In this document: in pieces, positions 16,891 to 41,056 of the stretch
Layout: every line of letters starts with the position of its first letter
Numbering within the stretch: position 1 is the first letter of the stretch
From: a virus
Reading direction: 5' to 3' (one strand)
IMG/VR virus record: IMGVR_UViG_3300045988_176431
Span: 160,001-224,000 of that record
Length of the DNA: 64,000 nucleotides
Position numbers and translations under genes: made by a program
Notes under the pieces: generated by a model
What the model saw: only the letters and a program-made list of their open reading frames with translations
The model's database searches: none
Told to the model about the DNA's origin: nothing

Positions 16891-16937
16891 TTTTATTCTC
16901 ACCTACTTTCCTTAAGTTAATGTTTTTTAGGGATAAA

Positions 16938-26202: not shown

Positions 26203-28446
26203 TTAAATGAAATTACTATTCAATTGTACACGATGCTTCTCAGCCGTTAATTTATCTTTGATTCTCATCAATTTATATTTTTCCTGCTGATCACCGTTTG
26301 CGTTTGCATCATTAATCTTTTCTTCACAAATGCGAATTTCAGTCTCTAATTCACGTGTTAATTCATTACGGATTCTTCTATCTTTATCTTTTGAAAAATG
26401 ACGAATTAACATAGCAAATGGAAGAGAGGATAATTTATATCTAGCAGCTCCACCATATAAAAGAGCCCACTTCGCATTTCTAAAGATTTTATGACGATAT
26501 CCAGGTTTTAAGAAAAATTCTTTTCGTCTTTTTACATCCATCTTATTAAAAGAATCTGTAAACTTTTTAACAGAATTTAACCAACCTTTTGGACCAGCCA
26601 TAATAGCTTTACCAGCATTTTTTAATTTTGTATTTTTTTCTTGACGAATTCCACGTTTCTGTTGACGTGCAGCTTCAGCATCAATTGCTTTGTTTTGAAT
26701 TTTGGTAGGGAGGTCTTCTTTTGGTTTTTGTGGTTTTACATTGGTTTTCTCTTTATCACCATGAATCTCTCTTCTAAATTCTTCAACTTCTTCATCTTTA
26801 TCTTTCGATGCTTCCACATATGCACTATCTATATAATATTTACTTGTTTTACGTACCTGAACATATATCTCAAATACAGGAATTCTATCAATAGTTTCGT
26901 CATTATATGTAACTTTGAAATCATTATCATATTTTTGGAATTTTTCTTTAATTTCTTTTTTTATATCTGCTATTTTTGTATCGGTTAGTGATTCTTTTTT
27001 AAAAGTACCAACCCATAAGCCTATACATTTTCCTTTGTAAAAATCTTCATTTATTTTTTCAGGATTATAACCATTTTCACATTTTAAGTTAAAACTTTTC
27101 ACAATATTCATTATAGTATGAAATGCATTTTTTCTGGCATCATAATTTTCTTTATTTGCTTCTTTCCAGTCTTTTCTTATTTTATTACCATCTTCATCAT
27201 AATCAAATAATTCATCTTCTTCTGATTCAGATTTCTTAACTGCATCTTCTTTTGCTTTTTTCTTTTCTTCTTCTTTCTCATTCTTTTCTTTTTCAATCTG
27301 TTTTTGTGTCATAATATGTTTTTTAATAACCGAATCTGGTTCTCCATTATCAGTCCATTCCATCATCGCAATGTCAGATGAAATATCATCAATATAATCC
27401 TCATACTTTTCTACAATTTCAGATACTTCATCTTCATCATCATGAGAAAGAATTTCAAAATCACGACAAGACTCATAGTAATTCTTTAATGATTTCAAAT
27501 AATCATATTTTTTGCATTTATTGATATCATTTACAATAGAATCTCCTGTTGTACATTCATAGATATCTTCTAAAGCAGCAGTCAATCCCATAAAATGATT
27601 CGTTGATTCTGTATAGGTTAATTCAGGTTTTTTAAGTCCAATGCTTATTAATCCTTTAATATAAATCTTTGTATTAAATGGCATTGTATCAATACGTGAC
27701 ATAACTAATTCATCTTTTCCAATAATGGATACTGCTCTTGCAGTATCCATTTTATATCTTTCAATATCAATAGAACTAGAATCGCTTACTATACCTGGTT
27801 GATTATCTTGATTATCATAAACGGCAGATCTAGCAACATGCCTTACAAGGTCTTCTAATAAATATGCACGAGTATATCCATTGACTAGAAAATATGCGAA
27901 TAAAGTAATTCTTGTATTTGGTTCAATACAATAAATAACGACTGAATTTATTATATCAGTTAATTCTTTTTCACATCCTGTTTCAGATATTTCATAAATA
28001 TAATCAAATACAGTATTTAGCATCTCTTCTCCACCACTTTTACAAGCAATCATTGAAAGATTTATTGTATTCTTTAATACTTTAAGTTCATCATCCAGAA
28101 TTTCTTTTATCTCATAATATAATCCAGTACCATTATCATAATCCATATTAAGTCCGTTACATTTATTAATTTTCTCCTCCACAATTGTTTGCACTGATGC
28201 TATTTTATGAAAAGGAATAAAATTATTGTTTACAATATCAAGAATGAATCTTGCTCCAAAATAACACCCTTCCGAAAGAATTAATGAAAGATTCTTAAGG
28301 ATAAATGACAAAGATTCATCTTTATACGTATTATAAAATTCTTGAGCGGTCTCTTCTGTATAATTCTTCTTCAATTCTTCATATTTTTTATCGAATCTTT
28401 TTTGAGGAGTCCCATTAAGAATTTCATCTTTATTTAAGATACTCAT
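26203..28446 (-). CDS. Large hypothetical virion-module protein (K/E-rich centre, basic C-terminus)
   Basis: 747 aa, first gene of the minus-strand head block. Confidence 0.6.
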   Translation of the reverse strand: MSILNKDEILNGTPQKRFDKKYEELKKNYTEETAQEFYNTYKDESLSFILKNLSLILSEGCYFGARFILDIVNNNFIPFHKIASVQTIVEEKINKCNGLNMDYDNGTGLYYEIKEILDDELKVLKNTINLSMIACKSGGEEMLNTVFDYIYEISETGCEKELTDIINSVVIYCIEPNTRITLFAYFLVNGYTRAYLLEDLVRHVARSAVYDNQDNQPGIVSDSSSIDIERYKMDTARAVSIIGKDELVMSRIDTMPFNTKIYIKGLISIGLKKPELTYTESTNHFMGLTAALEDIYECTTGDSIVNDINKCKKYDYLKSLKNYYESCRDFEILSHDDEDEVSEIVEKYEDYIDDISSDIAMMEWTDNGEPDSVIKKHIMTQKQIEKEKNEKEEEKKKAKEDAVKKSESEEDELFDYDEDGNKIRKDWKEANKENYDARKNAFHTIMNIVKSFNLKCENGYNPEKINEDFYKGKCIGLWVGTFKKESLTDTKIADIKKEIKEKFQKYDNDFKVTYNDETIDRIPVFEIYVQVRKTSKYYIDSAYVEASKDKDEEVEEFRREIHGDKEKTNVKPQKPKEDLPTKIQNKAIDAEAARQQKRGIRQEKNTKLKNAGKAIMAGPKGWLNSVKKFTDSFNKMDVKRRKEFFLKPGYRHKIFRNAKWALLYGGAARYKLSSLPFAMLIRHFSKDKDRRIRNELTRELETEIRICEEKINDANANGDQQEKYKLMRIKDKLTAEKHRVQLNSNFI

Positions 28447-28569
28447 TTATAATTACCTCACTTTCTTCTTAAAAATTCTTATGTATTTGTTTTCTTACCA
28501 TTTTTGCATAATTCTAATCAAAAAACAATACTCTAATGAAAATATATTATTTTTAAAGGTGGTGAAAGC

Positions 28570-30852
28570 ATGGCAACTGAAAGAGATTTAAATGTTTCTT
28601 TACATAAAAGAGAAACAAATGAAGTCTTAAATCTTTATCCAGAAACAAAGACAGAAAATGTTCATGTTACAGATGAACAAACTCTTGATAAATATTTATC
28701 ATTACAAAATAAAATAAATGAATCTTATTTAAAAGATTCAAAAAAATTAAGTCAAATAGAAGATGGAGCTCAGAAAAACCAGAATGCTTTTTCTGCAGTA
28801 AAATCAGGAAATTTTTTAGTAGAAGCATCTAAAGCAAAAGATACTCTGGAACTTATTGCTGGTAGCAATATTTCTATTGATATTATTGATGATAAGATTA
28901 CTTTTAATGCAGGTAAAACAGATGTTACAAAAGCAGATGCTACAACAGATGGTCTGATGAGCAGTAAGGATTATAAAAAACTTCAAAATATTGAAGAAAA
29001 TGCTAATAATTATGTTCATCCATCATCTGGTGTAGTTCCTAATACTTATATTCGTGTAACTGTAGATAAGAATGGTCATGTAACAAAAGGAAATAATGAT
29101 GTATTAAAAATTTCTGAGGGTGGTACTGGTGTAAGTACATTATTAGAACTTAAAAATTTAATTGGTTCAGGTAATATTGATATGGAGTATTCTGTTAAAG
29201 AAAACTCGTCAAATCCTGTTACATCATCAGGTATTTATAAAGCGTTACAGGAAAAAGCGAATACGAATCATGGAAATCATGTTCCAGATAGTTCAGATTC
29301 ACCTGATTCTTTTTCTTTCTTAAAAGAAGGAAATGTATGGGAATCAATTCCAAGTGGAAATACTTCACAAAAAGGTGTTATTCAATTAACAAATGAAATT
29401 GGTGATAGTGAATCTTTAGGAGTAAGTCAAAAAGGGTTAAAATCACTATCAGACTCCATAACAACAAAGATTGATAGTTTAAAAGGAAGCCCTGAATCAG
29501 GATTAGATACATTAGAAAAAATCGCAACTCGAGTTAATACAAATAGTACAGAATTAAGTAATCATACAAGTAATAGTACAATTCATATTACTGCTGATGA
29601 AAGAAAGAAATGGAATGCTAAGTCAGATGTTAAATTAGATACTGAATTATCTAATACATCTACAAATGCTATTAGTAATAAAGCAATAACAGATGCCTTA
29701 ACAACTCATACAAGTAATAGTACAATTCATATTACTGCTGATGAGAGGACTAAGTGGAATGGTATTTTAGAAAAAGCAAAAGCATATACTGATGAGAAGT
29801 ATGGTTCTATTGACAAAATAGATTTTTATGTGATTGAATCTGGTACTCATGAATCAATCACATCTCCATCTAATTCATTAATTTATTTAGAGAAAGCATC
29901 TTCAGGAACACAATATGAATCATGGATTTACAGAGATAAATGGATGAATATCGGCTCTGATGATTTAAATCTTGATAATTATTATAATAAAACTGAAGTT
30001 GTCAATTTAATCAATAATTCAAAACTTACAGTAGACACTGCTTTATCTTCTACTTCTGAAAATCCTGTTCAGAATAAAGTAATTAATTCTGCATTAGGAA
30101 ATAAAGCAAATAGTAGTGAATTAAGTACTCATACAAGTAATACTACAATTCATATTACTGCTGAAGATAGAAAGAGATGGAATGATGCTGCATCTAGTAC
30201 TGTTACAGTAGATACTACTTTATCTAATACATCTACAAATGCTATTAGTAATAAAGCAGTAAAAGATGCCTTAGATAATAAAGCAAACAATACTAACTTA
30301 ACAAATAAAGTAGATAAAGTAAATGGAAAAGGATTATCTACAAATGATTTTACAAACGCATTAAAATCTAATTATGATAATGCATATGCACATTCAACAA
30401 GTGCTCATGCACCATCAAATGCTGAAAGAAATGTAATATTAGGTATTCAAAAGAATGGGATTGATATAACTCCGAATACAAGTACGCGAAAGGTAAATAT
30501 TACAGTTCCCAAAAAAATAAGTGAATTATCAAATGATTCTGGTTATATAAGCAAGCACCCATCTGTAGAAACAGAGCCAGATACATCATCAAGCAAATCA
30601 ATCAATATAAAAACTGGAGATTCATTTGATGTAGTTGATTCAGTAACAAGAGATTCAAATGGTCATGTAACAAAGATAAATGTAAAAACAGTTACTGTAC
30701 CAAAACATGATAACTCAGGTGGAGGTGTTGTTAGAAGTAAAACAGCTCCAAAGGATACAACAGTATTATGGATTGATATTAGCAGTACAAACGAAATTCC
30801 TAAATATTATAATGGAACAGTTTGGATTACATTACCAGCAGTATGGGGGTGA
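28570..30852 (+). CDS. Tail fibre protein (paralogue A)
   Basis: Repeated fibre motifs: TTDGLMSSKDYKKLQNIE; S-x-N-[PA]-[VI]-x-[NS]-K-[AV]-[IV]-x-x-A-L-x-x-K-A (x5); and H-I-T-A-[DE]-[DE]-R-x-[KR]-W-N (x3). Confidence 0.75.
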   Translation: MATERDLNVSLHKRETNEVLNLYPETKTENVHVTDEQTLDKYLSLQNKINESYLKDSKKLSQIEDGAQKNQNAFSAVKSGNFLVEASKAKDTLELIAGSNISIDIIDDKITFNAGKTDVTKADATTDGLMSSKDYKKLQNIEENANNYVHPSSGVVPNTYIRVTVDKNGHVTKGNNDVLKISEGGTGVSTLLELKNLIGSGNIDMEYSVKENSSNPVTSSGIYKALQEKANTNHGNHVPDSSDSPDSFSFLKEGNVWESIPSGNTSQKGVIQLTNEIGDSESLGVSQKGLKSLSDSITTKIDSLKGSPESGLDTLEKIATRVNTNSTELSNHTSNSTIHITADERKKWNAKSDVKLDTELSNTSTNAISNKAITDALTTHTSNSTIHITADERTKWNGILEKAKAYTDEKYGSIDKIDFYVIESGTHESITSPSNSLIYLEKASSGTQYESWIYRDKWMNIGSDDLNLDNYYNKTEVVNLINNSKLTVDTALSSTSENPVQNKVINSALGNKANSSELSTHTSNTTIHITAEDRKRWNDAASSTVTVDTTLSNTSTNAISNKAVKDALDNKANNTNLTNKVDKVNGKGLSTNDFTNALKSNYDNAYAHSTSAHAPSNAERNVILGIQKNGIDITPNTSTRKVNITVPKKISELSNDSGYISKHPSVETEPDTSSSKSINIKTGDSFDVVDSVTRDSNGHVTKINVKTVTVPKHDNSGGGVVRSKTAPKDTTVLWIDISSTNEIPKYYNGTVWITLPAVWG

Positions 30853-30858
30853 TAAAAA

Positions 30859-32361
30859 ATGTTGACAGCAAATGAATTAATTGAATTAAAAAAACTGATT
30901 GATGCACAGATAAAGAGACGATGTGGATATGGACCAATGCAAGAAGTTGGTGATTTCGAAGAAACACCAAAAGCAGGTGGAATTATAAAAGCAGAACAAG
31001 GAGAAAAAATTATTTCTCCCATTCTTGAAGTAGAAGATGTATCGGGATTAACTTTAACAATAGATTCGTATCATACCTCTACAACAAATTTAAAAGCTCA
31101 TATCGAAGTGGGAACTCCAATTCCTAAAAATTTTAATAAAAATTTATTTGATATTGTACATAAGCTATCAGAAGAAACGATGCAAAATCAAGCATCATGT
31201 TGTCGTGGTGCGTGTACAGGACTTTGCTATGGTACATGCTCATCGTTTTGTAGTGGGTGTTCTGGTAGTTGCGGTACAGGTTGTGGGTCAAATTGTACAA
31301 AAACGTGTGGAAATAGTTGTGGAAACTGTACAAGATCATGTACGGCAACTTGTGGAGGAAGTTGTTTTGCTTCATGTGGTGCTGATTGTACTGGAGGATG
31401 TACTGGATCATGTTCTGCAGGTTGTGATGGATGTTCTGGTAGTTGTGGTACTGCATGTACATCCGGATGTACAGGATGCTCTGGATGTTCTAATGGTTGT
31501 ACTGGTAGTTGTGAAAATGGCTGTGAGTTTGGTTGTATACATGGATGTAAAGGCTGTACTGGCACTTGTGGAAATAGTTGTAGTGGTTGTCAAGGATGTA
31601 CTACTGGTTGTTCTGGAGGATGTTCAGGATGTAAGGCATCATGTGGTTCTGAATGTGCAGCATCATGTGGAAATAAATGTACTGGATGTGGTGACAGTTG
31701 TCACAGTGATTGTGGTGGATCATGTTCAAATTCCTGCTCAAATTTCTGTGCTAACGGATGTAATACTTGTTCATCTGGTTGCACAGGTGGATGTACTGGG
31801 CATTGTTATGGATGTACAGGTACTTGTGGTAATACTTGTGGTGGAGGATGCGGCTCTACATGTTCAAGCAGTTGCATTGGTTGTTCTGGATGCGGTGGAA
31901 CATGTTCTTCTAGTTGTGGTGGATGTACTACGACGTGTGACCATAGTTGTTCGGGATGTTCTGCAAGTTGTGGTGGATGTGACGGTGATTGTGCGAATTC
32001 ATGTGCAGGTTGTTTTGGTTGTTCTACAAGTTGTAATGGATGTAGTTCATCTTGTTCTACAAGTTGTAATGGATGTTCAAAAACATGTGGCGGATGTTCA
32101 AGTTGTTCTGGATGTTCTACAAGTTGTGGTAATGCGTGTACATCTGGATGTGCTGGATGTTCTGGATGTAGTTCATGTACTGCTGGTTGTTCAGATTCAT
32201 GTAATGGATGTGTTGGTTGTTCAATATCATGTGGAAATGGATGTTCTGGATGTAGTTCAAATTGTCAAGGAGTATGCAAAAACTCATGCTTTAGTACATG
32301 TACATCAACATGTTTCGGAAATTGTACAGGATCATGTTATGGTTCTCTAACATCGATATAA
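30859..32361 (+). CDS. Cysteine mega-repeat protein: 113-aa ordinary N-domain plus ~385 aa of C-x2-3 repeats
   Basis: RBS GGGGGTG, 7 nt after the fibre gene stop. From residue 114 to the end every 3rd or 4th residue is Cys (CGTG CGSN CTKT CGNS...), about 104 Cys by hand count. The remaining residues are almost only G/S/T/N/A/D. Confidence 0.8.
   Translation: MLTANELIELKKLIDAQIKRRCGYGPMQEVGDFEETPKAGGIIKAEQGEKIISPILEVEDVSGLTLTIDSYHTSTTNLKAHIEVGTPIPKNFNKNLFDIVHKLSEETMQNQASCCRGACTGLCYGTCSSFCSGCSGSCGTGCGSNCTKTCGNSCGNCTRSCTATCGGSCFASCGADCTGGCTGSCSAGCDGCSGSCGTACTSGCTGCSGCSNGCTGSCENGCEFGCIHGCKGCTGTCGNSCSGCQGCTTGCSGGCSGCKASCGSECAASCGNKCTGCGDSCHSDCGGSCSNSCSNFCANGCNTCSSGCTGGCTGHCYGCTGTCGNTCGGGCGSTCSSSCIGCSGCGGTCSSSCGGCTTTCDHSCSGCSASCGGCDGDCANSCAGCFGCSTSCNGCSSSCSTSCNGCSKTCGGCSSCSGCSTSCGNACTSGCAGCSGCSSCTAGCSDSCNGCVGCSISCGNGCSGCSSNCQGVCKNSCFSTCTSTCFGNCTGSCYGSLTSI
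31198..32358 (+). repeat. Low-complexity C-x2-3 coding tract (TGT/TGC every 9-12 nt)
   Basis: Cryptic periodic tract, locally GC-enriched. It generates long spurious ORFs in other frames and on the opposite strand. Confidence 0.85.
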
Positions 32362-32395
32362 CAAAAAAATAACAAAATATAAAGGAGTGAAAAAA

Positions 32396-32683
32396 ATGAA
32401 TATATTAAGATGTAAAAATGGTTCTTTTAAAATTGAAAATGTGCGTGAATATATTAATTTTCAAAATGGAACACCGAAAAGATACATTGATATTCAATCA
32501 ACAAATAGTATCACTTCATTCGATGAAGTAGCTGATGTATTGACAAAAGATACCGTAAAGGAATTTGAAATTCTCTCAGAATCTGGTGTAATATTAGATA
32601 CAATTAAAAATGTAAAATTAACAAATATTAATAAAGACATTTCAAATTCAGTTTCTATTGTTATTAACTTCGAAAAAGAGTAA
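32396..32683 (+). CDS. Hypothetical protein
   Basis: Track ORF 32387..32683, with the ATG at 32396 after AAGGAG. Confidence 0.6.
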   Translation: MNILRCKNGSFKIENVREYINFQNGTPKRYIDIQSTNSITSFDEVADVLTKDTVKEFEILSESGVILDTIKNVKLTNINKDISNSVSIVINFEKE

Positions 32684-32698
32684 AGGAGTTGATTCTTC

Positions 32699-33004
32699 AT
32701 GATAACTATTAAATTTGATAATGGTATACGGATTAATCCTGATTCGTATGGTTATCTAAAGAATAAAATGGTAAAATTACTCTTTTATAAAGATTATAAT
32801 GAAGAAGACTTGATACGGAAAATAGGATATGCGAAAGACCAAAAATTTACTTTAATTATTGATTTACCTGGAAGAGAAAAAGAAATTCGTTGTGTTAATT
32901 TCCATTTCTCTTCCATGATAAAACATATAAAAGGAAGTAATGGAAAAGAAATATCAGATGATTCTGTACAATATCTTGAAATTTTTTTTAACAAGGAGGT
33001 GTAA
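32699..33004 (+). CDS. Hypothetical protein
   Basis: RBS AAGGAG, 101 aa. Confidence 0.6.
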   Translation: MITIKFDNGIRINPDSYGYLKNKMVKLLFYKDYNEEDLIRKIGYAKDQKFTLIIDLPGREKEIRCVNFHFSSMIKHIKGSNGKEISDDSVQYLEIFFNKEV

Positions 33005-33007
33005 AAT

Positions 33008-34501
33008 TTGTCTTTTTTTAATGATAAATTTTTAACCGAAGTAAGTAATTACGAATATCAAAAGAGTTATGAAAAAAAATCACTTGTATTATATAATAAT
33101 CATATTTATATTGCAAAAAAAGATACAAATGAAAAAATTGTTCCTGAAACAACAACTGATGATTGGGAATATATTAGTTACGACGATTGTATTAATATCA
33201 TTGCCAATATTGGCTCTTTTACAGGTGATTCTTATTTAGGTACAAAAAAATATCCATTTATGGGAACCATATTACAAAATTCTATTCAGATTTTACAAAA
33301 GAATAAAGTAAATCGACCAGGATATTTTTCTAATATTAAATTTGGAAAAGATATCGTAGATGATAATAATGCAACGAATTTTGGTGTTTTATATGACATT
33401 GATAATGAAAATCCAAAGTTAATTGCTATGACAAATGCATTAAATGAAGTAGATTTGGGAACTGGACAATTTTGTTTTAATAATATTTATTCTAGTTCAC
33501 CAACTATTACTATTTCAGATGACGATAAAATAGCATCTACAAAAGATATCAATACAAATGATTATACAAATTTCTTTATGAGTTTAACACCAAAAGGTTA
33601 TATTCTCACAAATGAAAATGGAACAAGTGGTAGAATGCATATTGGTTTTGCTGCTACTGATGTAGAAAAAGCATTAAAAGAAAACAATCTTTCACCTGAT
33701 GATTTTGCACCACTTGTAAAAATCCCTGTATTAAAAAAAGATTTATATGTAGACCATTCAATTAATGATTTGATGTTAAAACGTTTTCATTATGAAGATG
33801 GTGAAGAAGTTTCTGATGAGGATGAAAATGAACATGAAACAGGTGAAAGTTTAATACGTTATATTAAATTACCGATTTATCGAAAGAATATTGGATATTT
33901 TGTATTTAAAAATTATCCAATTGATCCAAATACAGAAACAAATGATGATGCAACAATCATTGTAAAAGAATTAGAATTAATTCCATTTGATAAAAACAAA
34001 AAATCATTAAAGATTAACTTTAACAAAGCTCGATTAAAAGAGAACTATAATGATGAATTTGAATGTCGTAGTAATATGGAAGTATTAGAAGATGGGTCAT
34101 TAAAGATTACTTTTACAGGTGATAAACTTTCAGATCCATTTGCTTATATTACAGCAAGAGTATCTTTAAATGATATCAATGCAGAGAAAGCATATGATTT
34201 ATCAAAATATGAATATCTTAAAATCGTAAGTGATTATAAGAGACCATACTTAATTGGTTTTGATGAATTTCAATCAAGTGAAGAAAATACAGCATATCAT
34301 CCATATCAAACGAATGAATTTGGAGATTTCTACTGTTATTCACAAGATGACCAATATAGTGTAGAAAGTTATATCTATGCTCTTAGATATGATGAATTCA
34401 TCGCTTTAAATACTATGATGATTCAAAATCAACAAAAACAAATTAATGAATTAAAAACTGAAATATTGAATATCATATCAAAAATAAAAAATATTAAATA
34501 A
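33008..34501 (+). CDS. Fibre-associated protein with a peptidase S74-like (intramolecular chaperone) segment
   Basis: TTG start after AAGGAGG. TKDINTNDYTNFFMSLTPKGYILTNENGTSGRMHIGFAATDVEKAL resembles the S74 pattern (SDxRLK...HIGLIAQEVE). Terminal coiled coil NQQKQINELKTEILNIISKIK. Confidence 0.4.
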   Translation: MSFFNDKFLTEVSNYEYQKSYEKKSLVLYNNHIYIAKKDTNEKIVPETTTDDWEYISYDDCINIIANIGSFTGDSYLGTKKYPFMGTILQNSIQILQKNKVNRPGYFSNIKFGKDIVDDNNATNFGVLYDIDNENPKLIAMTNALNEVDLGTGQFCFNNIYSSSPTITISDDDKIASTKDINTNDYTNFFMSLTPKGYILTNENGTSGRMHIGFAATDVEKALKENNLSPDDFAPLVKIPVLKKDLYVDHSINDLMLKRFHYEDGEEVSDEDENEHETGESLIRYIKLPIYRKNIGYFVFKNYPIDPNTETNDDATIIVKELELIPFDKNKKSLKINFNKARLKENYNDEFECRSNMEVLEDGSLKITFTGDKLSDPFAYITARVSLNDINAEKAYDLSKYEYLKIVSDYKRPYLIGFDEFQSSEENTAYHPYQTNEFGDFYCYSQDDQYSVESYIYALRYDEFIALNTMMIQNQQKQINELKTEILNIISKIKNIK

Positions 34502-34516
34502 TGGAGGAAATGAATT

Positions 34517-34852
34517 ATGACAAAAAAATTTAAAATTGAAATTACACAGGAAGCAATTGATTATGTACAGAGAATTGGATATGAGGTAGATGGTTTTACT
34601 CATATTATTAATTCCTTATTTGAACAGCATAAGAATGATATCGATGATTCTGTAATTAAAAGTGTGCCTTTCCAGACTTACCAAAAGAAATTCTTTAAGG
34701 TAAAAGCTGAATATGAATTAGCAAAACAGGCACTTGAGAAGGAATTGAAAAAGAAAGTAATTGAGAAAACGGGAATTGAAGATCCTAAATTCTCATGGAA
34801 TATTCCTGACTTCCAAGAATTAATTGTAGATATTGAAGTTGAGGAGGACTAA
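34517..34852 (+). CDS. Small helical protein coupled to the radical SAM gene (possible maturase partner)
   Basis: RBS GGAGG; the stop lies 3 nt before the radical SAM ATG. 111 aa. Confidence 0.6.
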   Translation: MTKKFKIEITQEAIDYVQRIGYEVDGFTHIINSLFEQHKNDIDDSVIKSVPFQTYQKKFFKVKAEYELAKQALEKELKKKVIEKTGIEDPKFSWNIPDFQELIVDIEVEED

Positions 34853-34855
34853 AAA

Positions 34856-36190
34856 ATGAATGGTAGAGTTCGTAAATTTGAGCAATGGCAAGACATGCTT
34901 GGAAGACTCTATCCAGAATTTAGAAAAAATAGTGACGGTTCAGATAAAGTATTATCTCGAACCGTCACTTTTCAGGTGACGGATAGATGTTCTCTCGCTT
35001 GTACTTATTGCTATCAGATTAATAAAAAAACAAGAGTTATGAAATTTGAGTATGCTAAAAAATTAATTGATGCTTTATTAGAAGGAGATGAAAAATTCTC
35101 TGACTATGTAAACGTTGATACCTCGCCAGGAATCATTATCGAATTTATCGGTGGTGAACCTTTATTAGAGCCAGAATTAATCGAACAAATCTGTGATTAT
35201 TTCGAAAAAAGAGCAATCGAGTTAATGCATCCTTGGGCATTACATCATGAATTTTCAATTTGTTCAAATGGCGTTGCTTACTTTGAACCAACGGTACAAC
35301 ATCTTTTAAATAAATATCGTCATAAACTTTCTTTTTCTGTTACAATTGATGGAAACAAAGAACTTCATGATTCTTGTCGAGTATTTCCAGATGGTGTAAC
35401 AGGAAGTTATGATTTAGCAGTTGCTGCAGCACAAGATTGGATTAATCACGGTGGTTATATGGGTAGTAAAATAACAATTGCACCTGGAAACATTAAATAT
35501 ATTTATGATGCAATCACTCATATGGTCGAATTAGGATATCAAGAAATCAATGCAAATACAGTATACGAAAAAGGATGGACAATTGAACATGCTAAAATCT
35601 TTTATCAAGAATTAAAAAGAATTGCTGATTATTGGATTGATCATAATATTGTTGAATCTCATTTTTTGGCATTATTTAGTGAAAATTTCTTTAAACCAAA
35701 AGATGAAAAAGATTTAGATAACTGGTGTGGTGGTAATGCTTTAATGTTATCAATGGATCCAGATGGGTATCTATATCCATGTATTCGTTATATGGAATCA
35801 TCATTGGGAGATGAAAGAGAACCATATCGAATTGGTCATGTTAATGTTGGAATTGCACAAGATGAATGTACTCATAATTGTGTAGAGTGTCTAAGAAAAA
35901 TAACAAGAAAAACACAATCAACAGATGAATGTTTTTATTGTCCAATTGCAGAGGGTTGTAGTTGGTGCACGGCTTACAATTATCAAGAAACTGGTACTCC
36001 AGATAAAAGAGTTACCTATATTTGTGATATGCATAAAGCAAGAGCATTAGCAAATGTTTACTTCTGGAATAAATGGTATATAAAAACAAAACAAAATAAA
36101 GTATTTAAAAATCATGTACCAGATGATTGGGCTCTTACAATTATTGATAAGGATGAATTAGATTACTTGAAGAGTTTAGAAAAACGATAA
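34856..36190 (+). CDS. Radical SAM enzyme with a C-terminal SPASM domain (peptide-maturase / anSME-like)
   Basis: CSLACTYCYQ is the CX3CX2C radical SAM cluster motif. WCGGNALMLSMDPDGYLYPC and CVECLRK...CFYCPIAEGCSWC are the SPASM auxiliary-cluster cysteines. Confidence 0.85.
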   Translation: MNGRVRKFEQWQDMLGRLYPEFRKNSDGSDKVLSRTVTFQVTDRCSLACTYCYQINKKTRVMKFEYAKKLIDALLEGDEKFSDYVNVDTSPGIIIEFIGGEPLLEPELIEQICDYFEKRAIELMHPWALHHEFSICSNGVAYFEPTVQHLLNKYRHKLSFSVTIDGNKELHDSCRVFPDGVTGSYDLAVAAAQDWINHGGYMGSKITIAPGNIKYIYDAITHMVELGYQEINANTVYEKGWTIEHAKIFYQELKRIADYWIDHNIVESHFLALFSENFFKPKDEKDLDNWCGGNALMLSMDPDGYLYPCIRYMESSLGDEREPYRIGHVNVGIAQDECTHNCVECLRKITRKTQSTDECFYCPIAEGCSWCTAYNYQETGTPDKRVTYICDMHKARALANVYFWNKWYIKTKQNKVFKNHVPDDWALTIIDKDELDYLKSLEKR

Positions 36191-36193
36191 AAA

Positions 36194-36229
36194 ATATGAG
36201 AGATAAGGAAATTTCCTTATCTCTCATAT
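36194..36229. terminator. Bidirectional terminator, perfect palindrome
   Basis: ATATGAGAGATAAGGAAATTTCCTTATCTCTCATAT between the convergent radical SAM and endolysin genes. Confidence 0.8.
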
Positions 36230-36235
36230 TGCTTT

Positions 36236-37111
36236 TTACCATTTAATATTTTTTGTAGCAACCCATTTACCGGTTCCAATATTAGTCCAATATTTTCTCT
36301 TACATACAATACTTACAGTATCACCTGCTTTGAGTTTACCGATTTTTTTCGATACTTTCTTATTTGTTTTACGAATATAACTATTCTTTTTTAATTTCTT
36401 CGTTGGATATTTACTAAGTCCAATTGTATTAAGGGCTGTATTTTTCATATATCCAGTTTTACCCTTATAATATACTTTAGACCATCCATCTTTCATATCT
36501 TTTAAGATATTCACATAGATTCCTTTATCTAATTTTGCAATAACACCCTTCTTAACATCCTGAGTTTTGTAAATCTTACAAACTACTTTTGTTTTAGAAG
36601 AACGTGTTTTGCCTTTCCCTTTAACGTTTGCCCCATTATAATCTACGCCATCAATTTTACCATAATATGTAAAATCTTTTGCTCTCTCTTCCCATGTGGA
36701 GATTGTGCAATCTTTTGCTGTAGAACGTGCTTCATAGATATATGCTTTTCCTTCATCATTCACATGAATCAAAGCAATATGTCCTTGATACCAGATTCCC
36801 ATTCCATCTACAACATGACTATCATTACTCACTTTATGGCATACTTTAAAACTATCTTTAATACCAGTAGAACCACCGTGGTTTGTTCCAGTTGCTTTAC
36901 CAACAAACCCAGAACAATCAATACCGATTTTTCCTACTTTATTCATAGCCATTGATTTAATAGATCTTGTAAATACAGAAGGGTACATTCTAGCAAGATT
37001 CGAAACACCTGCTTTAGTTACTTTCGTTCCTTTGTATCCATACACATATACATATCCATCTTTAATCATTCTTCTTGCATTCTTGCAAGCATCTGATGCT
37101 TTAACAGACAT
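36236..37111 (-). CDS. Endolysin: NlpC/P60 endopeptidase plus two SH3b-like domains
   Basis: GIDCSGFVGKATG is the catalytic Cys motif. HIALIH follows. The C-terminal GWSKVYYKGKTGYM and YWTNIGTGKWVATKNI are SH3b-like. Track ORF 36236..37129; the ATG at 37111 has the better RBS. Confidence 0.7.
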   Translation of the reverse strand: MSVKASDACKNARRMIKDGYVYVYGYKGTKVTKAGVSNLARMYPSVFTRSIKSMAMNKVGKIGIDCSGFVGKATGTNHGGSTGIKDSFKVCHKVSNDSHVVDGMGIWYQGHIALIHVNDEGKAYIYEARSTAKDCTISTWEERAKDFTYYGKIDGVDYNGANVKGKGKTRSSKTKVVCKIYKTQDVKKGVIAKLDKGIYVNILKDMKDGWSKVYYKGKTGYMKNTALNTIGLSKYPTKKLKKNSYIRKTNKKVSKKIGKLKAGDTVSIVCKRKYWTNIGTGKWVATKNIKW

Positions 37112-37170
37112 ATAGACACTTCCTTTCATTTATTTTTTATTTTCTCTTAATTATATGTCTAAAAAATAGT

Positions 37171-39177
37171 TTAAGCAATGTATTTTTGTATTGATAAGAT
37201 AATATAGAAAAAGATTGCTTTCTTATAATTAATTCGGCTTGCAATTCTACTGTATTTTTTATCTACACCAGATTCTTTTAACCATTGATTTAAAATCGAA
37301 TTAATTCTTTCTATATTATCATTTTTACTATTTGTTTTCTTAAATAATGAAGCAGCCCATGCTAAAAAGTATTGACTTCTAACATCACGAATTCGTTTTT
37401 TATCCTCATAAATATATAAGAATAAAATAGACTCGATCATTTTTTGTAGTTCATCAACATTCTTCTCTGTCATAAGTTCTGTTAAAAAGAATCGACAATC
37501 ACTAATTCCAACACCTGCCATTTTAGCACTTGCTTCTGCTCGTACAATATCAACACCATTTGCAATAATAGGCATATATACTTTTAAAACAGCATTTTGT
37601 ACTTCTGTTGATGCATTAGATACTTCATCAATAATTGGAGTATCGTCATCATACATTGTATTTGTTGTCACAACTGCATTACCGTTTTTATAATTTTCCA
37701 TATAAATATTAGCAATCTTTTTAAACATCGAGTTATGATCATTACGAATACGTTGAATAAATCGAATTACTTCTTTATCATTTCCTTCTTTCATATAAGG
37801 TTTTAAGAACTTATATGAATTTTGAATGCTTTCAACCAAAGCTCCAAATACATGATTTGTCTTTTTAATCAAAAACTTATCTGTCATATTATCAATCGTA
37901 TATTTCATAACAGGTTCAATGACACCATTTGGAAAATACTTTGTATAAATGGATGGATAAGCTGATAAAGCATAAATAGATAAAGCGGAGTTTAAACTCT
38001 TTTTATCTGGATGAATTGTAAAATATCGAATCACAAAATAAAACAACGAAAAAATTGGATTACGATTTAATAGCAAAAACTTCGAGCTACCAAGAGTTTT
38101 CGTGTGTTCTTTCATTGTTGCTTTTAATTGTTTTTCTGTAATTCCAAAAAGTGTATAATACTGAGCTTTATCATTATCTGTAAAAGGAATCAAATATACA
38201 GGACCACTTGTTGTTAGTTTCGTAATATTTCGGTTAATATAGTTACTTACAAGTTGATTAAATTTTCTTACATTTCCTGGATTCCCTTTAAAAGTATTTT
38301 CAATAAAAGGACTGATAAAGTCTCTAAGAAGAGTGCTATTTCCAGCAGCTTCTACAAATACATCATATTCTTCATCAACACTTTTCATGATATAAGACCA
38401 GTCATTTGTTAAATCCTCTACAGATTCTTCAAAATCAATATCAAGATTAAACTCTTTAATCTTTTTATTGATATTTTTTCTAAGTTCCGTTCTCTTATTT
38501 TTTGGACAATAAGAGAACATTTTGATTGCTTGTCTTATATGAATCTCATCAATTAAAGGAAATTTTCTTTCTTCTGGTAATCCAAAATCAGAATCTTTTA
38601 ATTCATTACGTTCATAAGTATTTAATTTGCTTTCTGGAAAATATTCTTCTTCTGAACTTTCTGTTACTACTTTTTGATTATTCTTTGAAAAATACTTATC
38701 TTTCAATTTATCAAAAGCAGATTTATTTTCTTCTTTCTCTTTTTTTTCACGTTCTTCTTTTTTAATATTTTTATCATAACGTTTTTTTCGTTTCATCAAC
38801 ATATCCATTTGTTTTTCATATACATCTTTGGAAATTAATCCTTGAGTCTTCATTTTCTTTATATGAGAAATTTGATCATCGATTACTGATTCATACATTG
38901 TCTCATCTAAGAAACTGATTTCTTTTGTTTCAGAATCAATCGTAATTATATTACTTTCGTAAATATCTTCTGCATTCTTTGAATACAGGATAGCATCTAG
39001 TTTATCATCTGGATGCTCTTTTTTTGGTAAAGTCCTAATATAATCATTTACCGCTTCTGTTAAAGTGCTAAAGTGTTCATTAAATTGAATATCATCATTT
39101 AATAAATCAGTTATTACATAGTCACTTTCTTCAATATGTTCAATTGCAGATTCATTATACCATGTCATTATCATCAC
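37171..39177 (-). CDS. Large hypothetical protein
   Basis: 668 aa. Contains FGLPEERKFPLIDEIHIRQAIKMF, a motif type seen at the start of several phage virion proteins. Function unknown. Confidence 0.6.
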   Translation of the reverse strand: MMIMTWYNESAIEHIEESDYVITDLLNDDIQFNEHFSTLTEAVNDYIRTLPKKEHPDDKLDAILYSKNAEDIYESNIITIDSETKEISFLDETMYESVIDDQISHIKKMKTQGLISKDVYEKQMDMLMKRKKRYDKNIKKEEREKKEKEENKSAFDKLKDKYFSKNNQKVVTESSEEEYFPESKLNTYERNELKDSDFGLPEERKFPLIDEIHIRQAIKMFSYCPKNKRTELRKNINKKIKEFNLDIDFEESVEDLTNDWSYIMKSVDEEYDVFVEAAGNSTLLRDFISPFIENTFKGNPGNVRKFNQLVSNYINRNITKLTTSGPVYLIPFTDNDKAQYYTLFGITEKQLKATMKEHTKTLGSSKFLLLNRNPIFSLFYFVIRYFTIHPDKKSLNSALSIYALSAYPSIYTKYFPNGVIEPVMKYTIDNMTDKFLIKKTNHVFGALVESIQNSYKFLKPYMKEGNDKEVIRFIQRIRNDHNSMFKKIANIYMENYKNGNAVVTTNTMYDDDTPIIDEVSNASTEVQNAVLKVYMPIIANGVDIVRAEASAKMAGVGISDCRFFLTELMTEKNVDELQKMIESILFLYIYEDKKRIRDVRSQYFLAWAASLFKKTNSKNDNIERINSILNQWLKESGVDKKYSRIASRINYKKAIFFYIILSIQKYIA

Positions 39178-40174: not shown

Positions 40175-41056
40175 ATGGTAGATAATTTGAACATGACGAG
40201 AGAAAGAATAAGAAAACGTCGTAAATATTGGATTGAACGAATGGAATCGAATTCAATTTATAAAAGAGAAACTGAACGAAGTATTGATAAATCTCGTTTA
40301 TATCATTCTTATCATATAAGAGATAAGATTTCTCCAATTTATGATACTCCTGCTAAAGTAGAATATCGTGAAGAAAAGACAAACGAAACGATTATGCATA
40401 TATGTGATGAAGTGTCAAATTATGATAGTTCACCGGAAACTAAAATTGCTGTACTTAATTTTGCATCTTATAAAAGACCTGGTGGAGGATTTCTTACAGG
40501 AACTGGCACGGCACAAGAAGAATCTCTTTGTGAAGTAAGTAACCTTGCTTTAATCTTAGAGAATTTTATCGATGAATATCGGGAAAGAAAAGCAAATTAT
40601 GGATTGTATTCAAATGATTGTATTTATTCTCCTGATGTTTTATTTCGAGATAAAGGAAGAAAATGTATATTACGTCGATGTGATGTAATCAGTATATCGG
40701 CACCAAATTATATCGTTTATACGAGTAAGGGAAACGATTTCTCATTTAGAAATAAATATGGAACAACTAGTATTCATCATCATTTAGATTACCTAGATGC
40801 AATTGATACTAGAATTCAAACTATTTTTGATATTGCGGTTGACAATAAGGTAGATGTTTTAGTTCTTGGTGCCTTTGGATGTGGAATTTTTGGAAACAAA
40901 CCAACGTTAGTTGCTGAAACTATGTTTAAACTGGTAAAAATATATGAAAAGAACTTTAAGAAAATTATTTTTACGATTCCATATAATCCAAAAGTAACAC
41001 CAGCATTTAAATTATATTATAAATTATATAAGGAAGGAAAAGGTGAAGAACTATGA
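40175..41056 (+). CDS. Macro-domain superfamily protein of the TIGR02452 / microbial PARG-like (DUF2263) type
   Basis: AVLNFASYKRPGGGFLTGTGTAQEESLCEVSNL and VLVLGAFGCGIFGNKP match the family signature as I remember it. Confidence 0.65.
   Translation: MVDNLNMTRERIRKRRKYWIERMESNSIYKRETERSIDKSRLYHSYHIRDKISPIYDTPAKVEYREEKTNETIMHICDEVSNYDSSPETKIAVLNFASYKRPGGGFLTGTGTAQEESLCEVSNLALILENFIDEYRERKANYGLYSNDCIYSPDVLFRDKGRKCILRRCDVISISAPNYIVYTSKGNDFSFRNKYGTTSIHHHLDYLDAIDTRIQTIFDIAVDNKVDVLVLGAFGCGIFGNKPTLVAETMFKLVKIYEKNFKKIIFTIPYNPKVTPAFKLYYKLYKEGKGEEL

Follow-up and report, generated by a model that had tools for sequence, protein, structure and literature searches.

The tail-fibre module of a jumbo phage of ~254 kb, known from a gut metagenome, includes a gene for a 500-aa protein in which a folded N-terminal domain precedes a long cysteine repeat, and the same operon encodes a radical SAM/SPASM enzyme of a family recognized by its CXXX-repeat targets. 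Our preferred reading, to which we assign a probability of about 0.5, is that the repeat is the substrate of this maturase, is probably thioether-cross-linked and constitutes a tail-fibre module in phages of strict anaerobes. The same cassette occurs among the tail-fibre genes of about 150 other phages of anaerobic gut bacteria and may therefore specify an enzyme-cross-linked fibre part, possibly of a kind not yet described. The cassette consists of the Cys-repeat gene, a gene for a 111-aa accessory protein and the maturase gene, embedded in the tail-fibre module.

Organization of the operon

The window, i.e., the whole stretch of 64,000 nucleotides analysed, carries the following features in and around the Cys-repeat gene:

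28570..30852, + strand: tail-fibre-like protein, 760 aa (PHROG tail protein and minor tail protein matches)
30718..30849, + strand: fibre C-terminal module, the last ~44 residues of 28570..30852, GGGVVRSKTAPKDTTVLWIDISSTNEIPKYYNGTVWITLPAVWG (recognized from relatives)
30845..30849, + strand: ribosome-binding site GGGGG, read from the sequence, 9 nt upstream of the ATG
30859..32361, + strand: Cys-repeat gene, 500 aa by translation
30859..31197, + strand: N-terminal domain, residues 1-113 (AF2, phmmer, profile search)
31198..32337, + strand: Cys repeat, residues 114-493, with 104 Cys in 102 C-x2/C-x3 units
32338..32361, + strand: C-terminal tail YGSLTSI and stop codon (translation)
32387..33004, + strand: two small ORFs (98 and 101 aa), downstream of the Cys gene and upstream of the maturase genes
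33008..34501, + strand: tail-fibre-like protein, 497 aa (PHROG 7121 'tail fiber protein', E 6e-10)
34517..34852, + strand: accessory protein, 111 aa, cluster c4 (putative divergent relative, TIGR04116)
34856..36190, + strand: radical SAM/SPASM maturase, 444 aa (TIGR04115, CXXX-repeat target family)
36193..36230, no strand assigned: bidirectional terminator-like hairpin with a 17-bp stem, closing the + strand operon 28570..36190

The Cys-repeat gene is situated within the tail-fibre module in the same orientation as the fibre genes, 2.5 kb upstream of the radical SAM gene, which belongs to the same operon and lies four genes downstream; intergenic distances are very short, and the strong terminator directly follows the radical SAM gene. 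Only a 6-nt spacer separates the stop codon of the upstream fibre gene (TGA, 30850-30852) from the ATG at 30859, and this spacing, with the GGGGG at 30845-30849, agrees with the first-pass annotation, which had placed the gene close behind a tail-fibre stop with a ribosome-binding site of its own. The upstream fibre gene belongs to a cluster (c2) found immediately before the Cys gene in nearly all loci. Its C-terminal module of about 44 residues, with the pattern ...LWID...YYNG..W...AVWG, forms the C-terminus of the gene that immediately precedes the Cys-repeat gene in the majority of related loci, and an upstream ORF terminating in ...WG was seen in 71 of 104. A second fibre-like gene of the window, 48911..51883 on the minus strand, has neither this ending nor a Cys-repeat neighbour.

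Other components of the operon are restricted to the lineage of the window. The two small ORFs form clusters (c59, c60) present only on the window's own contigs, are conserved on the related contig L106, and have neither a homologue in other loci nor a family match. The 497-aa tail-fibre-like protein, which also shows a weak Peptidase_S74 match, is an insertion into the cassette that occurs only in this lineage. No protease or transporter family was detected in genes 26203..39177. The phage additionally carries an anaerobic NrdD/NrdG pair.

The cysteine repeat

The 500-aa protein contains 105 cysteines, one at residue 22 and the remaining 104 at residues 114-493, as in the tract of about 385 residues and about 104 cysteines initially reported. 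Consecutive cysteines of the tract are spaced by 4 (72 times), 3 (30 times) or 1 residue (once, C114-C115), i.e., 102 of the 103 gaps are 3 or 4, against a maximum of 47 when the residues of the repeat are shuffled 200,000 times. Cysteine makes up 27% of the repeat, as compared with 0.9% over 13 other large ORFs of the window, and 244 of the 276 non-Cys residues are G, S, T, N, A or D, with Asp itself being scarce (8 residues). The repeat begins at a conserved family junction, CCRGACTGLCYGTC, in the alignment of which C115, C119, G121 and C123 are invariant across the family, and closes with a conserved cap, ...CKNSCFSTCTSTCFGNCTGSCYG, common to relatives L024, L079, L013 and L022; in consensus form these ends read SSCRGACTGLC and ...STCxSTC(Y/F)xxCxxxC(Y/F)G. 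A polyprotein precursor of many small peptides had been among the options initially raised. It is disfavored because the tract has conserved start and end caps and lacks internal cleavage-like punctuation, because no protease is encoded nearby, and in view of the fusions of the repeat to large domains described below.

The structure prediction that had been proposed as a check was run with AF2, and yielded a folded N-terminal domain and a repeat with a pLDDT of about 35 and no secondary structure. As the autocorrelation of unit length (3 vs 4) is flat, a higher-order repeat or a regular solenoid register was rejected. The irregular mixing of units of 3 and of 4 residues speaks against a regular fold held by non-covalent contacts, without thereby proving cross-linking.

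In searches of Pfam, PHROGs, PDB and BFVD the sole match of the repeat was a weak one to PHROG 6085, of unknown function. The whole protein has no Pfam match and no NCBIfam match at E <= 0.01, and none of the target HMMs TIGR04114, TIGR04117 and TIGR04118 was matched by it at that threshold. The composition filters of HMMER may be responsible for the missing NCBIfam match; the relative L001 matches TIGR04114 at 21.3 bits (cutoff 20).

Authenticity of the gene

A tract of such low complexity raises the concern that it is not a real gene or is an assembly artefact: it is repetitive, its GC content departs from that of the genome (40% vs 29%), and the related contig L106 breaks off within the repeat. 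Against this, the identical 500-aa protein recurs on four separately assembled contigs, one of them an ENA scaffold of 254 kb and another from an independent Logan assembly, which answers the artefact test named in the first-pass annotation. The underlying DNA is moreover non-redundant, the ribosome-binding site and operon fit are good, and there are hundreds of homologues of the same architecture. The artefact explanation is thus already effectively refuted, and we accord it next to no weight. TRF detected merely short local arrays in the repeat DNA (period 9-24, 2-3.7 copies) and only 43 of 1147 15-mers recur, which rules out a recent tandem duplication, as had been inferred from the variation among units. 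The overlapping V-rich ORF 31148..32350 and the antisense ORFs within the gene are by-products of its TGT/GGA/TCA codon composition; the V-rich ORF was considered as a gene and dismissed as a frame artefact, the same frame being encountered in P0061 after a frameshift.

The N-terminal domain and the family it defines

The N-terminal domain is modelled by AF2 as a compact unit of three helices (residues 4-20, 45-58 and 95-105), mostly with pLDDT >90. A word-indexed homologue search with this single domain returned nothing; relatives surfaced with exhaustive phmmer, which recovered 69 cluster representatives, and a profile search recovered 259 proteins. Pfam, PHROGs, BFVD and PDB, the last by sequence and by fold, contain no match to the domain, and Foldseek searches against PDB and BFVD likewise returned nothing. 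PF27846.1 was flagged on some members of the family. The domain, helical and about 110 aa long, is the hallmark of an unnamed family of uncultured phages and Clostridia prophages. Its earlier description as 'structural-type' has gene context as its sole basis, as no known structural protein shows detectable similarity to it. Neither the N-terminal domain nor the repeat resembles any known virion protein, an observation that weighs against a fibre role.

Across the family the number of cysteines per protein ranges from 9 to 145, and relatives with large repeats contain 86, 90, 95, 113, 126 and 145; a form with about 100 repeats is consequently not unique. When the N-terminal domains are clustered at 70% identity, C-x2-3 repeats are found in all 43 clusters, with varying filler residues and copy number. 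This retention of periodicity in 43 of 43 clusters bears out the suggestion that the Cys periodicity itself is under selection, which loss of the pattern in homologues would have contradicted.

Prophage copies were identified in Lachnospiraceae, Oscillospiraceae, Eubacterium, Emergencia and Agathobacter; cultured carriers are Eubacterium pyruvativorans i6 (locus L092) and Lachnospiraceae bacterium 47-T17 (locus L097). In human-gut viromes the family is abundant, with a group of ~58-kb phages represented on dozens of contigs along with several groups of 90-260 kb. It is absent from cultured phages in GenBank, as judged from tblastn with the whole protein, a consensus-like N-terminal domain and the fibre C-terminal module, and hence there are no proteomic data to borrow. 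Searches of GenBank phages by megablast with positions 28000-37000, and by tblastn with two C-terminal domains of relatives, also found nothing.

The radical SAM maturase and its accessory protein

The 444-aa product of 34856..36190 matches TIGR04115 with 496 bits (cutoff 350, E 8e-149) over profile positions 2-359 of 359, which upholds the proposed link to the radical-SAM substrates of the CXXX-repeat type. It also matches PHROG 1802 (E 8e-66), its closest solved structure is CteB (5WGG, E 2e-14, full length), and it conserves the CX3CX2C motif (C45/C49/C52) and the SPASM cysteines. The next-best NCBIfam families, PapB (168 bits vs a cutoff of 340), QhpD-type (97 vs 453), CcpM (91) and SCIFF (90 vs 425), are all thioether-forming maturases of Cys-containing peptides. 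By these comparisons, the enzyme is homologous to the PapB, CteB/SCIFF and QhpD maturases but falls outside those families. Intein-like insertions, which are frequent in genes important to a phage, are present in three radical SAM genes of the family loci.

The 111-aa accessory protein has a homologue directly upstream of the radical SAM gene in at least 54 loci, and a profile search recovered 95 homologues. TIGR04116, the 'CXXX repeat peptide modification system protein', was matched by 9 of 90 accessory homologues (best E 3.4e-6) but not by the window's own protein; hhalign of the accessory protein against one true TIGR04116 member gave a colinear but weak alignment (probability 17%). Its AF2 model (pLDDT 91) comprises a strand, a helical hairpin and a β-hairpin. 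An RRE/PqqD-like fold was considered and is unsupported because Foldseek against PDB returned only generic helical-hairpin matches, none at E <= 0.001.

A second maturase of the TIGR04119 type (a SPASM-only protein) was not matched among the ten genes around the cassette. The literature search for the CXXX-repeat system located no experimental paper and no characterized TIGR04115 enzyme, and searches combining phage with Cys-rich or radical SAM, and ranthipeptide with bacteriophage, yielded nothing relevant.

Genomic linkage, synteny and domain fusions

The loci share a conserved gene order of tail-fibre-like, Cys-repeat, accessory and radical SAM genes. Among loci seeded with the N-terminal domain and having at least 2.5 kb of downstream sequence, 92 of 93 contain the radical SAM gene, at a median of 407 bp downstream; in the single exception it is cut off upstream. 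Conversely, a Cys-repeat ORF lies within 8 kb in 77 of 80 phage loci seeded with the radical SAM gene, and of the three remaining contigs, two end within about 1.2 kb of the radical SAM gene and one ends inside it. The linkage that the first-pass annotation had asked to be tabulated is thus near-total in both directions. A lack of such linkage, like loss of the periodicity in homologues or an assembly artefact, would have refuted that interpretation; of these three checkable conditions none applied.

This linkage bears on a further possibility, namely that the protein is a metallothionein-like metal or Fe-S filament whose free thiols bind Zn, Fe, Cu or clusters, the neighboring radical SAM enzyme having a different target or only assisting in loading. 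High Cys content, C-x2-C/C-x3-C spacing, small filler residues and the absence of a ligand-free fold are traits of metallothioneins, and all are displayed by the repeat, with its 27% Cys and lack of a predicted fold. Nevertheless, His, Asp and Glu, as co-ligands, are rare within residues 114-493, the enzyme family is defined by adjacency to CXXX targets, and the near-obligate two-way association with a radical SAM/SPASM enzyme and an accessory protein would remain unexplained; we regard this alternative as improbable.

In almost every locus the gene immediately preceding the Cys gene is fibre-like, with the synteny kept in more than 90 loci, on contigs that range from 30 to 260 kb as well as in a prophage of the contractile-tail type (baseplate/fibre context). 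The fibre-Cys gene pair has been duplicated as a unit in L013 and L062, and some family members possess several Cys-repeat paralogues per phage. In several loci the cassette is followed by proteins longer than 1000 aa; three have PHROG matches, one of these to minor-tail/virion-structural families. A gene directly downstream of a phage fibre gene often encodes a fibre chaperone, and the pairing with a specific fibre C-terminal module could accordingly be read as that of an assembly factor which is not kept in the particle, the repeat providing a scaffold or redox buffer while the fibre folds. A transient chaperone is, however, hard to reconcile with a dedicated radical SAM maturase, with up to 145 cysteines and several paralogues per phage, or with fusions to adhesin-like domains, and we give this idea little credence.

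In several lineages the repeat is fused to additional domains. The 58-kb gut phage group (P0012) has a globular domain of ~190 aa C-terminal to the repeat, a 968-aa protein (L040) has a C-terminal domain of ~400 aa, and proteins of ~820 aa (L139, L142-L152) combine Cys repeats with two subsequent ALK_LTK_GRD glycine-rich domains (PF12810, E 2e-96). Such fusions favor a structural or adhesin function over a small peptide. In L163 and L180 the helical domain comes after the Cys repeat instead of before it, and hence it is not simply a leader. A gene fusing the fibre C-terminal module to the Cys repeat was searched for and none was found. One apparent relative, P0044, was rejected as an unrelated protein of tandem ~100-aa repeats that had scored by accumulation.

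The most serious competitor to a fibre module, although still unlikely in our estimation, is a released RiPP-like molecule that is not part of the virion, in which the N-terminal domain acts as a leader or recognition domain of unusual length; the matured product would be bacteriocin-like, signalling, anti-defence or surface-coating, acting inside the cell or after lysis. The enzyme family is annotated as RiPP maturases whose relatives make ranthipeptides, in the bacterial counterpart (L002) the same enzyme accompanies a peptide that bears a leader (Tat signal), and a conserved N-terminal domain joined to a variable 'core' follows RiPP logic. In a Lachnospiraceae prophage, moreover, the cassette lies between tail-fibre and lysis genes, a common cargo site. 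This reading has to contend with an operon devoid of protease, exporter and immunity genes, an N-terminal domain that is well-folded, 110 aa long and able to sit after the repeat, the fusions, in several lineages, with large domains of globular or glycine-rich type, and products of 400-800 aa, far beyond usual RiPP sizes. Additionally, the cassette resides among fibre-type genes in both virulent-type jumbo and temperate phages, consistently behind a fibre-like gene. The gap between tail-fibre and lysis genes is a typical prophage site for cargo ('moron') genes, which counts against the fibre interpretation.

A model for a possible stapled fibre module

The repeat, the enzyme's family membership, the operon, the conserved synteny and the fusions are observations; upon them rest inferences of differing strength. 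That the 500-aa protein is a substrate of the 34856..36190 maturase is inferred with considerable confidence. Thioether chemistry on the repeat is an inference we favor with more reserve, and a virion or fibre location of the protein is supported slightly less well again, if still somewhat above even odds. There is no direct evidence for expression, modification or presence in the virion.

Under the fibre-module hypothesis, the cassette genes would be transcribed late, along with the upstream fibre gene, and the maturase would work with the accessory protein (34517..34852) on the 500-aa substrate. SAM-derived radicals could then convert many of the 104 thiols, unit by unit, into sulfur-to-carbon (thioether) links to nearby residues, and the unstructured Gly/Ser/Thr-rich chain might become a covalently stapled rod, resistant to reduction and proteases, bounded by the SSCRGACTGLC start motif and the conserved end cap. 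Rod length would be set by repeat number, which varies from 9 to 145 within the family. The N-terminal domain might serve as a handle recognized by the maturase and accessory protein, and/or dock the rod onto the fibre protein encoded upstream via the C-terminal module of the latter. Thioethers could perform in strict-anaerobe hosts the job of disulfides elsewhere, since disulfides are not dependable there.

As no TIGR04115 enzyme has been characterized in the literature searched, the thioether chemistry is extrapolated from PapB, CteB and QhpD. All three of PapB, CteB and Tte1186 form S-to-C cross-links and are homologous to one another, with PapB installing six Cys-Asp links in CX3D motifs (PMC10177961). 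The rarity of Asp, the PapB acceptor, in the repeat limits the analogy with respect to the acceptor residue. More tentatively, and with less than even confidence, the host-recognition apparatus of phages infecting strictly anaerobic gut Clostridia could be partly built from a ribosomally made protein stapled by the phage's own radical SAM enzyme into a continuous ladder of about 100 thioether rings.

Implications

On the more tentative ladder reading, the protein would be the first viral structural protein of an enzyme-cross-linked, 'RiPP-like' kind, and no known radical-SAM substrate would be nearly as heavily modified; repeat number would tune fibre length, and thioethers would take the place of disulfides in a reducing environment. 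If the fibre-module reading is correct, it would reveal the means by which phages of strict anaerobes stabilize extracellular structures without disulfides, give a clear biological role to the uncharacterized TIGR04115 enzymes, and join radical-SAM peptide chemistry with phage virion architecture, two fields so far without contact. About 100 modification sites on a single chain would be a demanding test of enzyme processivity, and a reduction- and protease-stable stapled protein rod could be of use as a biomaterial or scaffold. Given its abundance in human-gut viromes, the family may be relevant to the recognition of hosts in the gut. Even if the protein is not structural, a modified-protein cassette with up to 145 cysteines would be a new kind of phage cargo.

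Comparison with known systems

Adhesins of the T2/S16 gp38 type are distal fibre partners whose gene immediately follows that of the fibre, with an N-terminal domain and a glycine-rich polyglycine-II domain. The Cys-repeat gene shares the position directly after a fibre gene and the succession of an N-terminal domain and a low-complexity region rich in small residues, and some relatives fuse the repeat to glycine-rich PF12810 domains. No similarity to the Cys-repeat protein in sequence or fold was detected, and gp38-type proteins, to our knowledge, show no Cys periodicity and need no modifying enzyme. The beetle antifreeze β-helix, keratin-associated proteins and metallothioneins resemble the repeat in their very high Cys content, short regular spacing and small intervening residues. 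These depend on oxidizing conditions or metals, whereas the window protein is cytoplasmic in strict anaerobes, mixes 3- and 4-residue units irregularly and is tied to a radical SAM enzyme.

The maturases of PapB/freyrasin (CX3D x 6), CteB/SCIFF, Tte1186 and QhpD share with the window enzyme the radical SAM/SPASM architecture with three [4Fe-4S] sites, and ranthipeptide maturases provide both its best secondary HMM matches and its closest solved structure. PapB further resembles it in acting on a repeated C-x3 motif (PMC10177961). In the window repeat, the Asp at +4 of the CX3D motif is missing and the next Cys stands there instead. Substrates of the PapB/CteB type are peptides of ~40-50 aa with 1-6 links, as opposed to a 500-aa protein with about 100 repeats. 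Further, in contrast to ranthipeptide and sactipeptide clusters, the window has no leader-removal protease or transporter in 26203..39177.

The closest counterpart is the CXXX-repeat system of NCBIfam TIGR04114-04119, comprising the targets TIGR04114, TIGR04117 and TIGR04118, the maturases TIGR04115 and TIGR04119 and the associated protein TIGR04116, which has been defined bioinformatically. Common to both are an enzyme above the TIGR04115 cutoff, a substrate of tandem C-x3 (or C-x2) units, and a partner of ~100 aa directly upstream of the radical SAM gene; the family of this partner overlaps TIGR04116 in a minority of its members, the window's own protein not among them. Targets of the CXXX-repeat family have a short leader or signal and about 6-18 repeats, against a 113-aa folded N-terminal domain and 102 units in the window protein. 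The bacterial example L002 displays a Tat-type signal, 32 Cys, a TIGR04119 protein and adjacent TatA/TatC; the TIGR04119 protein has no homologue in the ten neighboring genes of the window. In the phage form the signal or leader is replaced by a folded helical domain of 110 aa, the cysteines number up to 145, Tat genes are lacking and the position behind a tail-fibre gene is fixed. The Cys-repeat phage family is a variant of a system so far defined only bioinformatically.

The Cys-repeat gene and its operon

The window comes from a jumbo phage and has genes for a phiKZ-type RNA polymerase beta, a tail sheath, a major head protein and an anaerobic NrdD with its activase, as well as five tRNAs and a GC content of 29%. 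Within it, the plus-strand block 28570..36190 reads as a single operon with the following constituents in order:

First gene of the block, +, tail-fibre-like protein, 760 aa
30859..32361, +, second gene, Cys-repeat protein, 500 aa
After the Cys-repeat gene, +, two small ORFs, 98 and 101 aa
After the two small ORFs, +, second fibre-like protein, 497 aa
34517..34852, +, 111-aa protein, between the 497-aa fibre-like gene and the radical SAM gene
34856..36190, +, last gene, radical SAM protein, 444 aa
36193-36230, 3' of the radical SAM gene, bidirectional terminator, 17-bp stem

The 98-aa, 101-aa and 497-aa genes are lineage-specific, with the same three being found in a related contig, L106. Convergent with this cassette, and sharing its terminator, is 36236..37129 (-), whose 297-aa product has two SH3_3 domains and a ...DCSGFV... 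motif in its N-terminal region and may be a cell-wall hydrolase. Elsewhere, 13396..16902 (-) encodes a 1168-aa protein combining RNA-polymerase beta-subunit PHROGs 2986 and 2962 with a C-terminal 'virion structural protein' PHROG 2926, components which are typical of phiKZ-like virion RNAPs but are fused in the window. The phage, which also codes for a microbial PARG-like protein (40175..41056 (+); PF10021, precomputed), the anaerobic RNR activase NrdG (41662..42183 (+)), i.e., the second radical SAM protein of the window, and NrdD (45559..47853 (-)), is equipped for strictly anaerobic hosts.

The ORF 30859..32361 (+) translates to 500 aa, its start codon lying 6 nt past the TGA of the preceding gene, with GGGGG as the ribosome-binding site. 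C-terminal to residue 113, every third or fourth position is a cysteine, and residues 114-493 (nt 31198..32337) contain 104 of these, spaced by gaps of 4 (72 times) or 3 (30 times), with one adjacent pair; the filler is drawn largely from G, S, T, N, A and D (244 of 276 non-Cys residues). Gaps of 3 or 4 number 102, as against a maximum of 47 when the residues of the repeat were shuffled 200,000 times, and Cys content is 27% vs 0.9% in 13 other large ORFs of the window. No higher-order pattern was seen in the 3/4 unit lengths. A recent DNA duplication was rejected as the origin of the repeat: TRF detected short arrays only and recurring 15-mers were restricted to 43 of 1147, bearing out the first-pass annotation, which had argued against recent tandem duplication from sequence inspection. 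The possibility that the tract is an assembly artefact can practically be discounted, because the identical 500-aa protein is called on four contigs, including an independent Logan assembly and a 254,052-bp ENA scaffold that includes the window (BENG15-1_SAMEA2784487 scaffold_59). The overlapping Val-rich ORF 31148..32350 (+; 400 aa) and antisense ORFs 31133..31593 were set aside as by-products of the TGT/GGA/TCA codon run in the repeat; one database protein (P0061) is frameshifted into this Val-rich frame and contig L106 begins inside it.

Diversity of the Cys-repeat family

A word-indexed search with the N-domain (residues 1-113) returned no matches; phmmer run exhaustively over 1.84 billion cluster representatives recovered 69, and a profile search 259 proteins, every one unnamed or 'hypothetical'. 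For the N-domain, searches of Pfam, PHROGs, PDB and BFVD by sequence or fold turned up no match. A precomputed Pfam accession, PF27846.1, appears on about 15 of 120 listed family members (including P0078, P0060 and P0137), and a recent Pfam curation of the family may exist. The members share a layout in which a ~105-aa N-domain leads through an almost invariant junction (SSCRGACTGLCVGTC) into C-x2-3 repeats, with an end cap, ...CKxSCxSTCxSTC(Y/F)xxCxxxC(Y/F)G, common to many. AF2 predicts three helices for the N-domain (pLDDT >90) and an unstructured repeat (pLDDT ~35).

At a threshold of 70% N-domain identity, the collected loci (eighty from IMG/VR, 18 from bacterial genomes and a few by exact look-up) group into 43 clusters, and their proteins have between 9 and 145 Cys each. 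That C-x2-3 repeats are retained in all of these clusters supports the initial proposal that the Cys periodicity itself is under selection; the accompanying claim that a ~100-repeat version is not known elsewhere does not survive, with relatives in L103, L078, L037 and L040 carrying 104-145 Cys. Long forms being common (up to 145 Cys), the window protein is therefore a large member of the family and no singleton.

Table. Cys per protein in the window and in related loci (L-numbers)
L103: 145
L078: 126
L037 (second copy): 113
Window: 105
L040: 104
L079: 95
L077: 91
L022: 90
L003: 86 (uninterrupted)

The bacterial carriers are Clostridia, namely Lachnospiraceae, Oscillospiraceae, Eubacterium pyruvativorans i6, Emergencia, Agathobacter and Anaerosporobacter. 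A tblastn search of the GenBank phage collection retrieved no carrier of the N-domain; a divergent version is present beside a radical SAM gene on an unannotated faecal contig, MT835573.

Linkage to a radical SAM maturase

The product of 34856..36190 matches NCBIfam TIGR04115, 'radical SAM peptide maturase, CXXX-repeat target family', at 496 bits (cutoff 350). The next-best families, PapB (168 bits), QhpD-type (97), CcpM (91) and SCIFF (90), are all Cys-peptide thioether maturases, with every score far under the family's own cutoff. The CX3CX2C motif (C45/C49/C52) and SPASM cysteines are present, and among solved structures CteB (5WGG) comes nearest, at E 2e-14 over the full length. PapB, CteB and Tte1186 are homologous enzymes forming sulfur-to-carbon links, of which PapB makes six, in CX3D motifs (PMC10177961). 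A literature search found no paper on TIGR04115 or CXXX-repeat targets.

Sequence extends at least 2.5 kb beyond the Cys gene in 93 loci, and 92 of these have a homologue of the window maturase (38-69% identity), its median distance being 407 bp downstream; the remaining locus has its enzyme gene upstream, truncated where the contig stops. Conversely, seeding with the maturase alignment places a Cys-repeat ORF within 8 kb in 77 of the best 80 phage loci, the remaining three having a contig end ~1.2 kb or less from the maturase gene (two) or inside it (one). These tabulations confirm the connection to SPASM radical SAM genes that had been envisaged from the sequence. We infer, with a probability of roughly 0.85, that the co-encoded maturase acts on the Cys repeat as its substrate. 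That the enzyme installs many thioether links in it is probable on grounds of homology only, such modification not having been shown. The family is confined to phages infecting strict anaerobes, which suggests thioethers as a substitute for disulfides. That the repeat instead forms a metal-binding filament appears improbable.

Three related phages have intein-like insertions in their maturase genes (L079 4825..7212, L022 11865..14330, L040 17105..19066; products of 653-821 aa), with Hint-type ends and a homing-endonuclease-like middle; the inserts of L079 and L022 are placed just N-terminal to the conserved CGG motif opening the SPASM region. Separately, SPN3US-like and Erwinia cultured jumbo phages in GenBank have paired radical SAM genes with ~24% identity to the window maturase.

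The 111-aa accessory protein of the window did not match TIGR04116, which is matched by 9 of 90 homologues gathered with its family profile (best E 3.4e-6). Its hhalign alignment with a true TIGR04116 member is colinear (probability 17%), with a common C-terminal W-x-(L/I)-(D/N)-F-x-T motif, and at the sequence level we read it as a putative divergent relative of that family. In the AF2 model (pLDDT 91) a strand is accompanied by a long helical hairpin and a beta-hairpin; this predicted structure does not support an RRE-type fold, and a PDB fold search with it returned generic matches only. In one 334-aa database protein (P0036), a Cys-repeat protein is joined to an accessory-like C-terminal tail (...WGLDFESRELTV...), representing either read-through or a true substrate-partner fusion.

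The fibre module and domain architectures

Clustering of all ORFs revealed a recurrent gene order of fibre-like protein (cluster c2), Cys-repeat protein (c0), ~110-aa accessory (c4) and maturase (c1). Members of c2 are anywhere between 54 and about 800 aa long, and most of them, in loci L003-L105, have a common C-terminal module, ...SxAPxxTxxLWIDTxxGxxKYYNGxxWVPLxAVWG, ending at the stop codon. Of 104 loci, 71 have WG as the final residues of the ORF upstream of the Cys gene, and another 11 have W[S/A/Q]. The 760-aa protein of the window carries this ending (module nt 30718..30849), and the other fibre-like gene, 48911..51883, has neither the ending nor a Cys-repeat neighbour. The fibre-like gene is duplicated along with the Cys gene in two loci (L013, L062), and in a Lachnospiraceae MAG prophage the cassette lies between baseplate/fibre and holin/amidase genes. 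The ~40-aa module also occurs as a stand-alone 68-aa protein in one prophage (L086 9752..9958); tblastn with it against GenBank phages gave no match.

Several phages have two or three Cys-repeat paralogues per maturase, and the repeat is found in diverse architectures. In an abundant group of ~58-kb gut phages a ~190-aa domain without Cys comes after it (P0012). In a 968-aa protein of L040, Cys repeats lie on both sides of an internal helical-domain copy, ahead of a ~400-aa C-terminal domain. In L139, L142-L152 and L156 (contigs of about 24-177 kb), the maturase-linked repeat, with 64-67 Cys, forms the N-terminal ~225 residues of ~820-aa proteins (e.g., L142 4720..7203) that also contain two ALK_LTK_GRD glycine-rich domains (PF12810, E 2e-96); downstream come the same accessory and maturase genes. 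The order is permuted in L163 7067..7564 and L180 9299..10045, where the repeat precedes a helical '...RR...' domain. These architectures are more in keeping with a modular component of large proteins, probably exposed at the surface, than with a peptide made of leader and core, and a released RiPP-like product is judged unlikely. Two side observations concern these groups: a second PF12810-like protein (803 aa) is encoded just 5' of the ~820-aa gene, and in the 58-kb group (L026-L076) roughly half of the contigs have the Cys-repeat gene as a single ~535-aa ORF with the C-terminal domain, the others having it split into ORFs of ~355 and ~58-168 aa, which could reflect a frameshift, assembly error or real variation.

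From gene context and these fusions we lean towards a covalently stapled rod with defined ends, forming part of the tail-fibre apparatus, though incorporation into the virion has not been shown; a role as an assembly factor seems a good deal less plausible. In such a scheme, the maturase would introduce many thioether links along the repeat, generating the stapled rod within the tail-fibre apparatus, and the N-domain might serve in enzyme recognition and/or docking onto the C-terminal module of the upstream fibre.

Comparison with the bacterial CXXX system

A GenBank entry filed as 'Bacteriophage sp.' (L002; MT837480, 6.8 kb) looks bacterial rather than viral and has genes for a Tat-signal CXXX peptide, TIGR04115, TIGR04119 and TIGR04116 proteins, followed by TatA- and TatC-like genes, a content suggesting that the bacterial product is exported in a folded state. 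In contrast, the Tat-signal target and TatA/TatC were not found in the window, nor was a TIGR04119 protein among the ten genes tested around its cassette. The window enzyme belongs to the known TIGR04115 family, so far only bioinformatically defined, and the public annotation of every Cys-repeat family member is 'hypothetical'. What is new relative to all sources searched is the phage-borne form with a folded helical domain, its expansion to as many as 145 Cys per protein, its fixed placement behind a tail-fibre gene and its fusions to adhesin-like domains.
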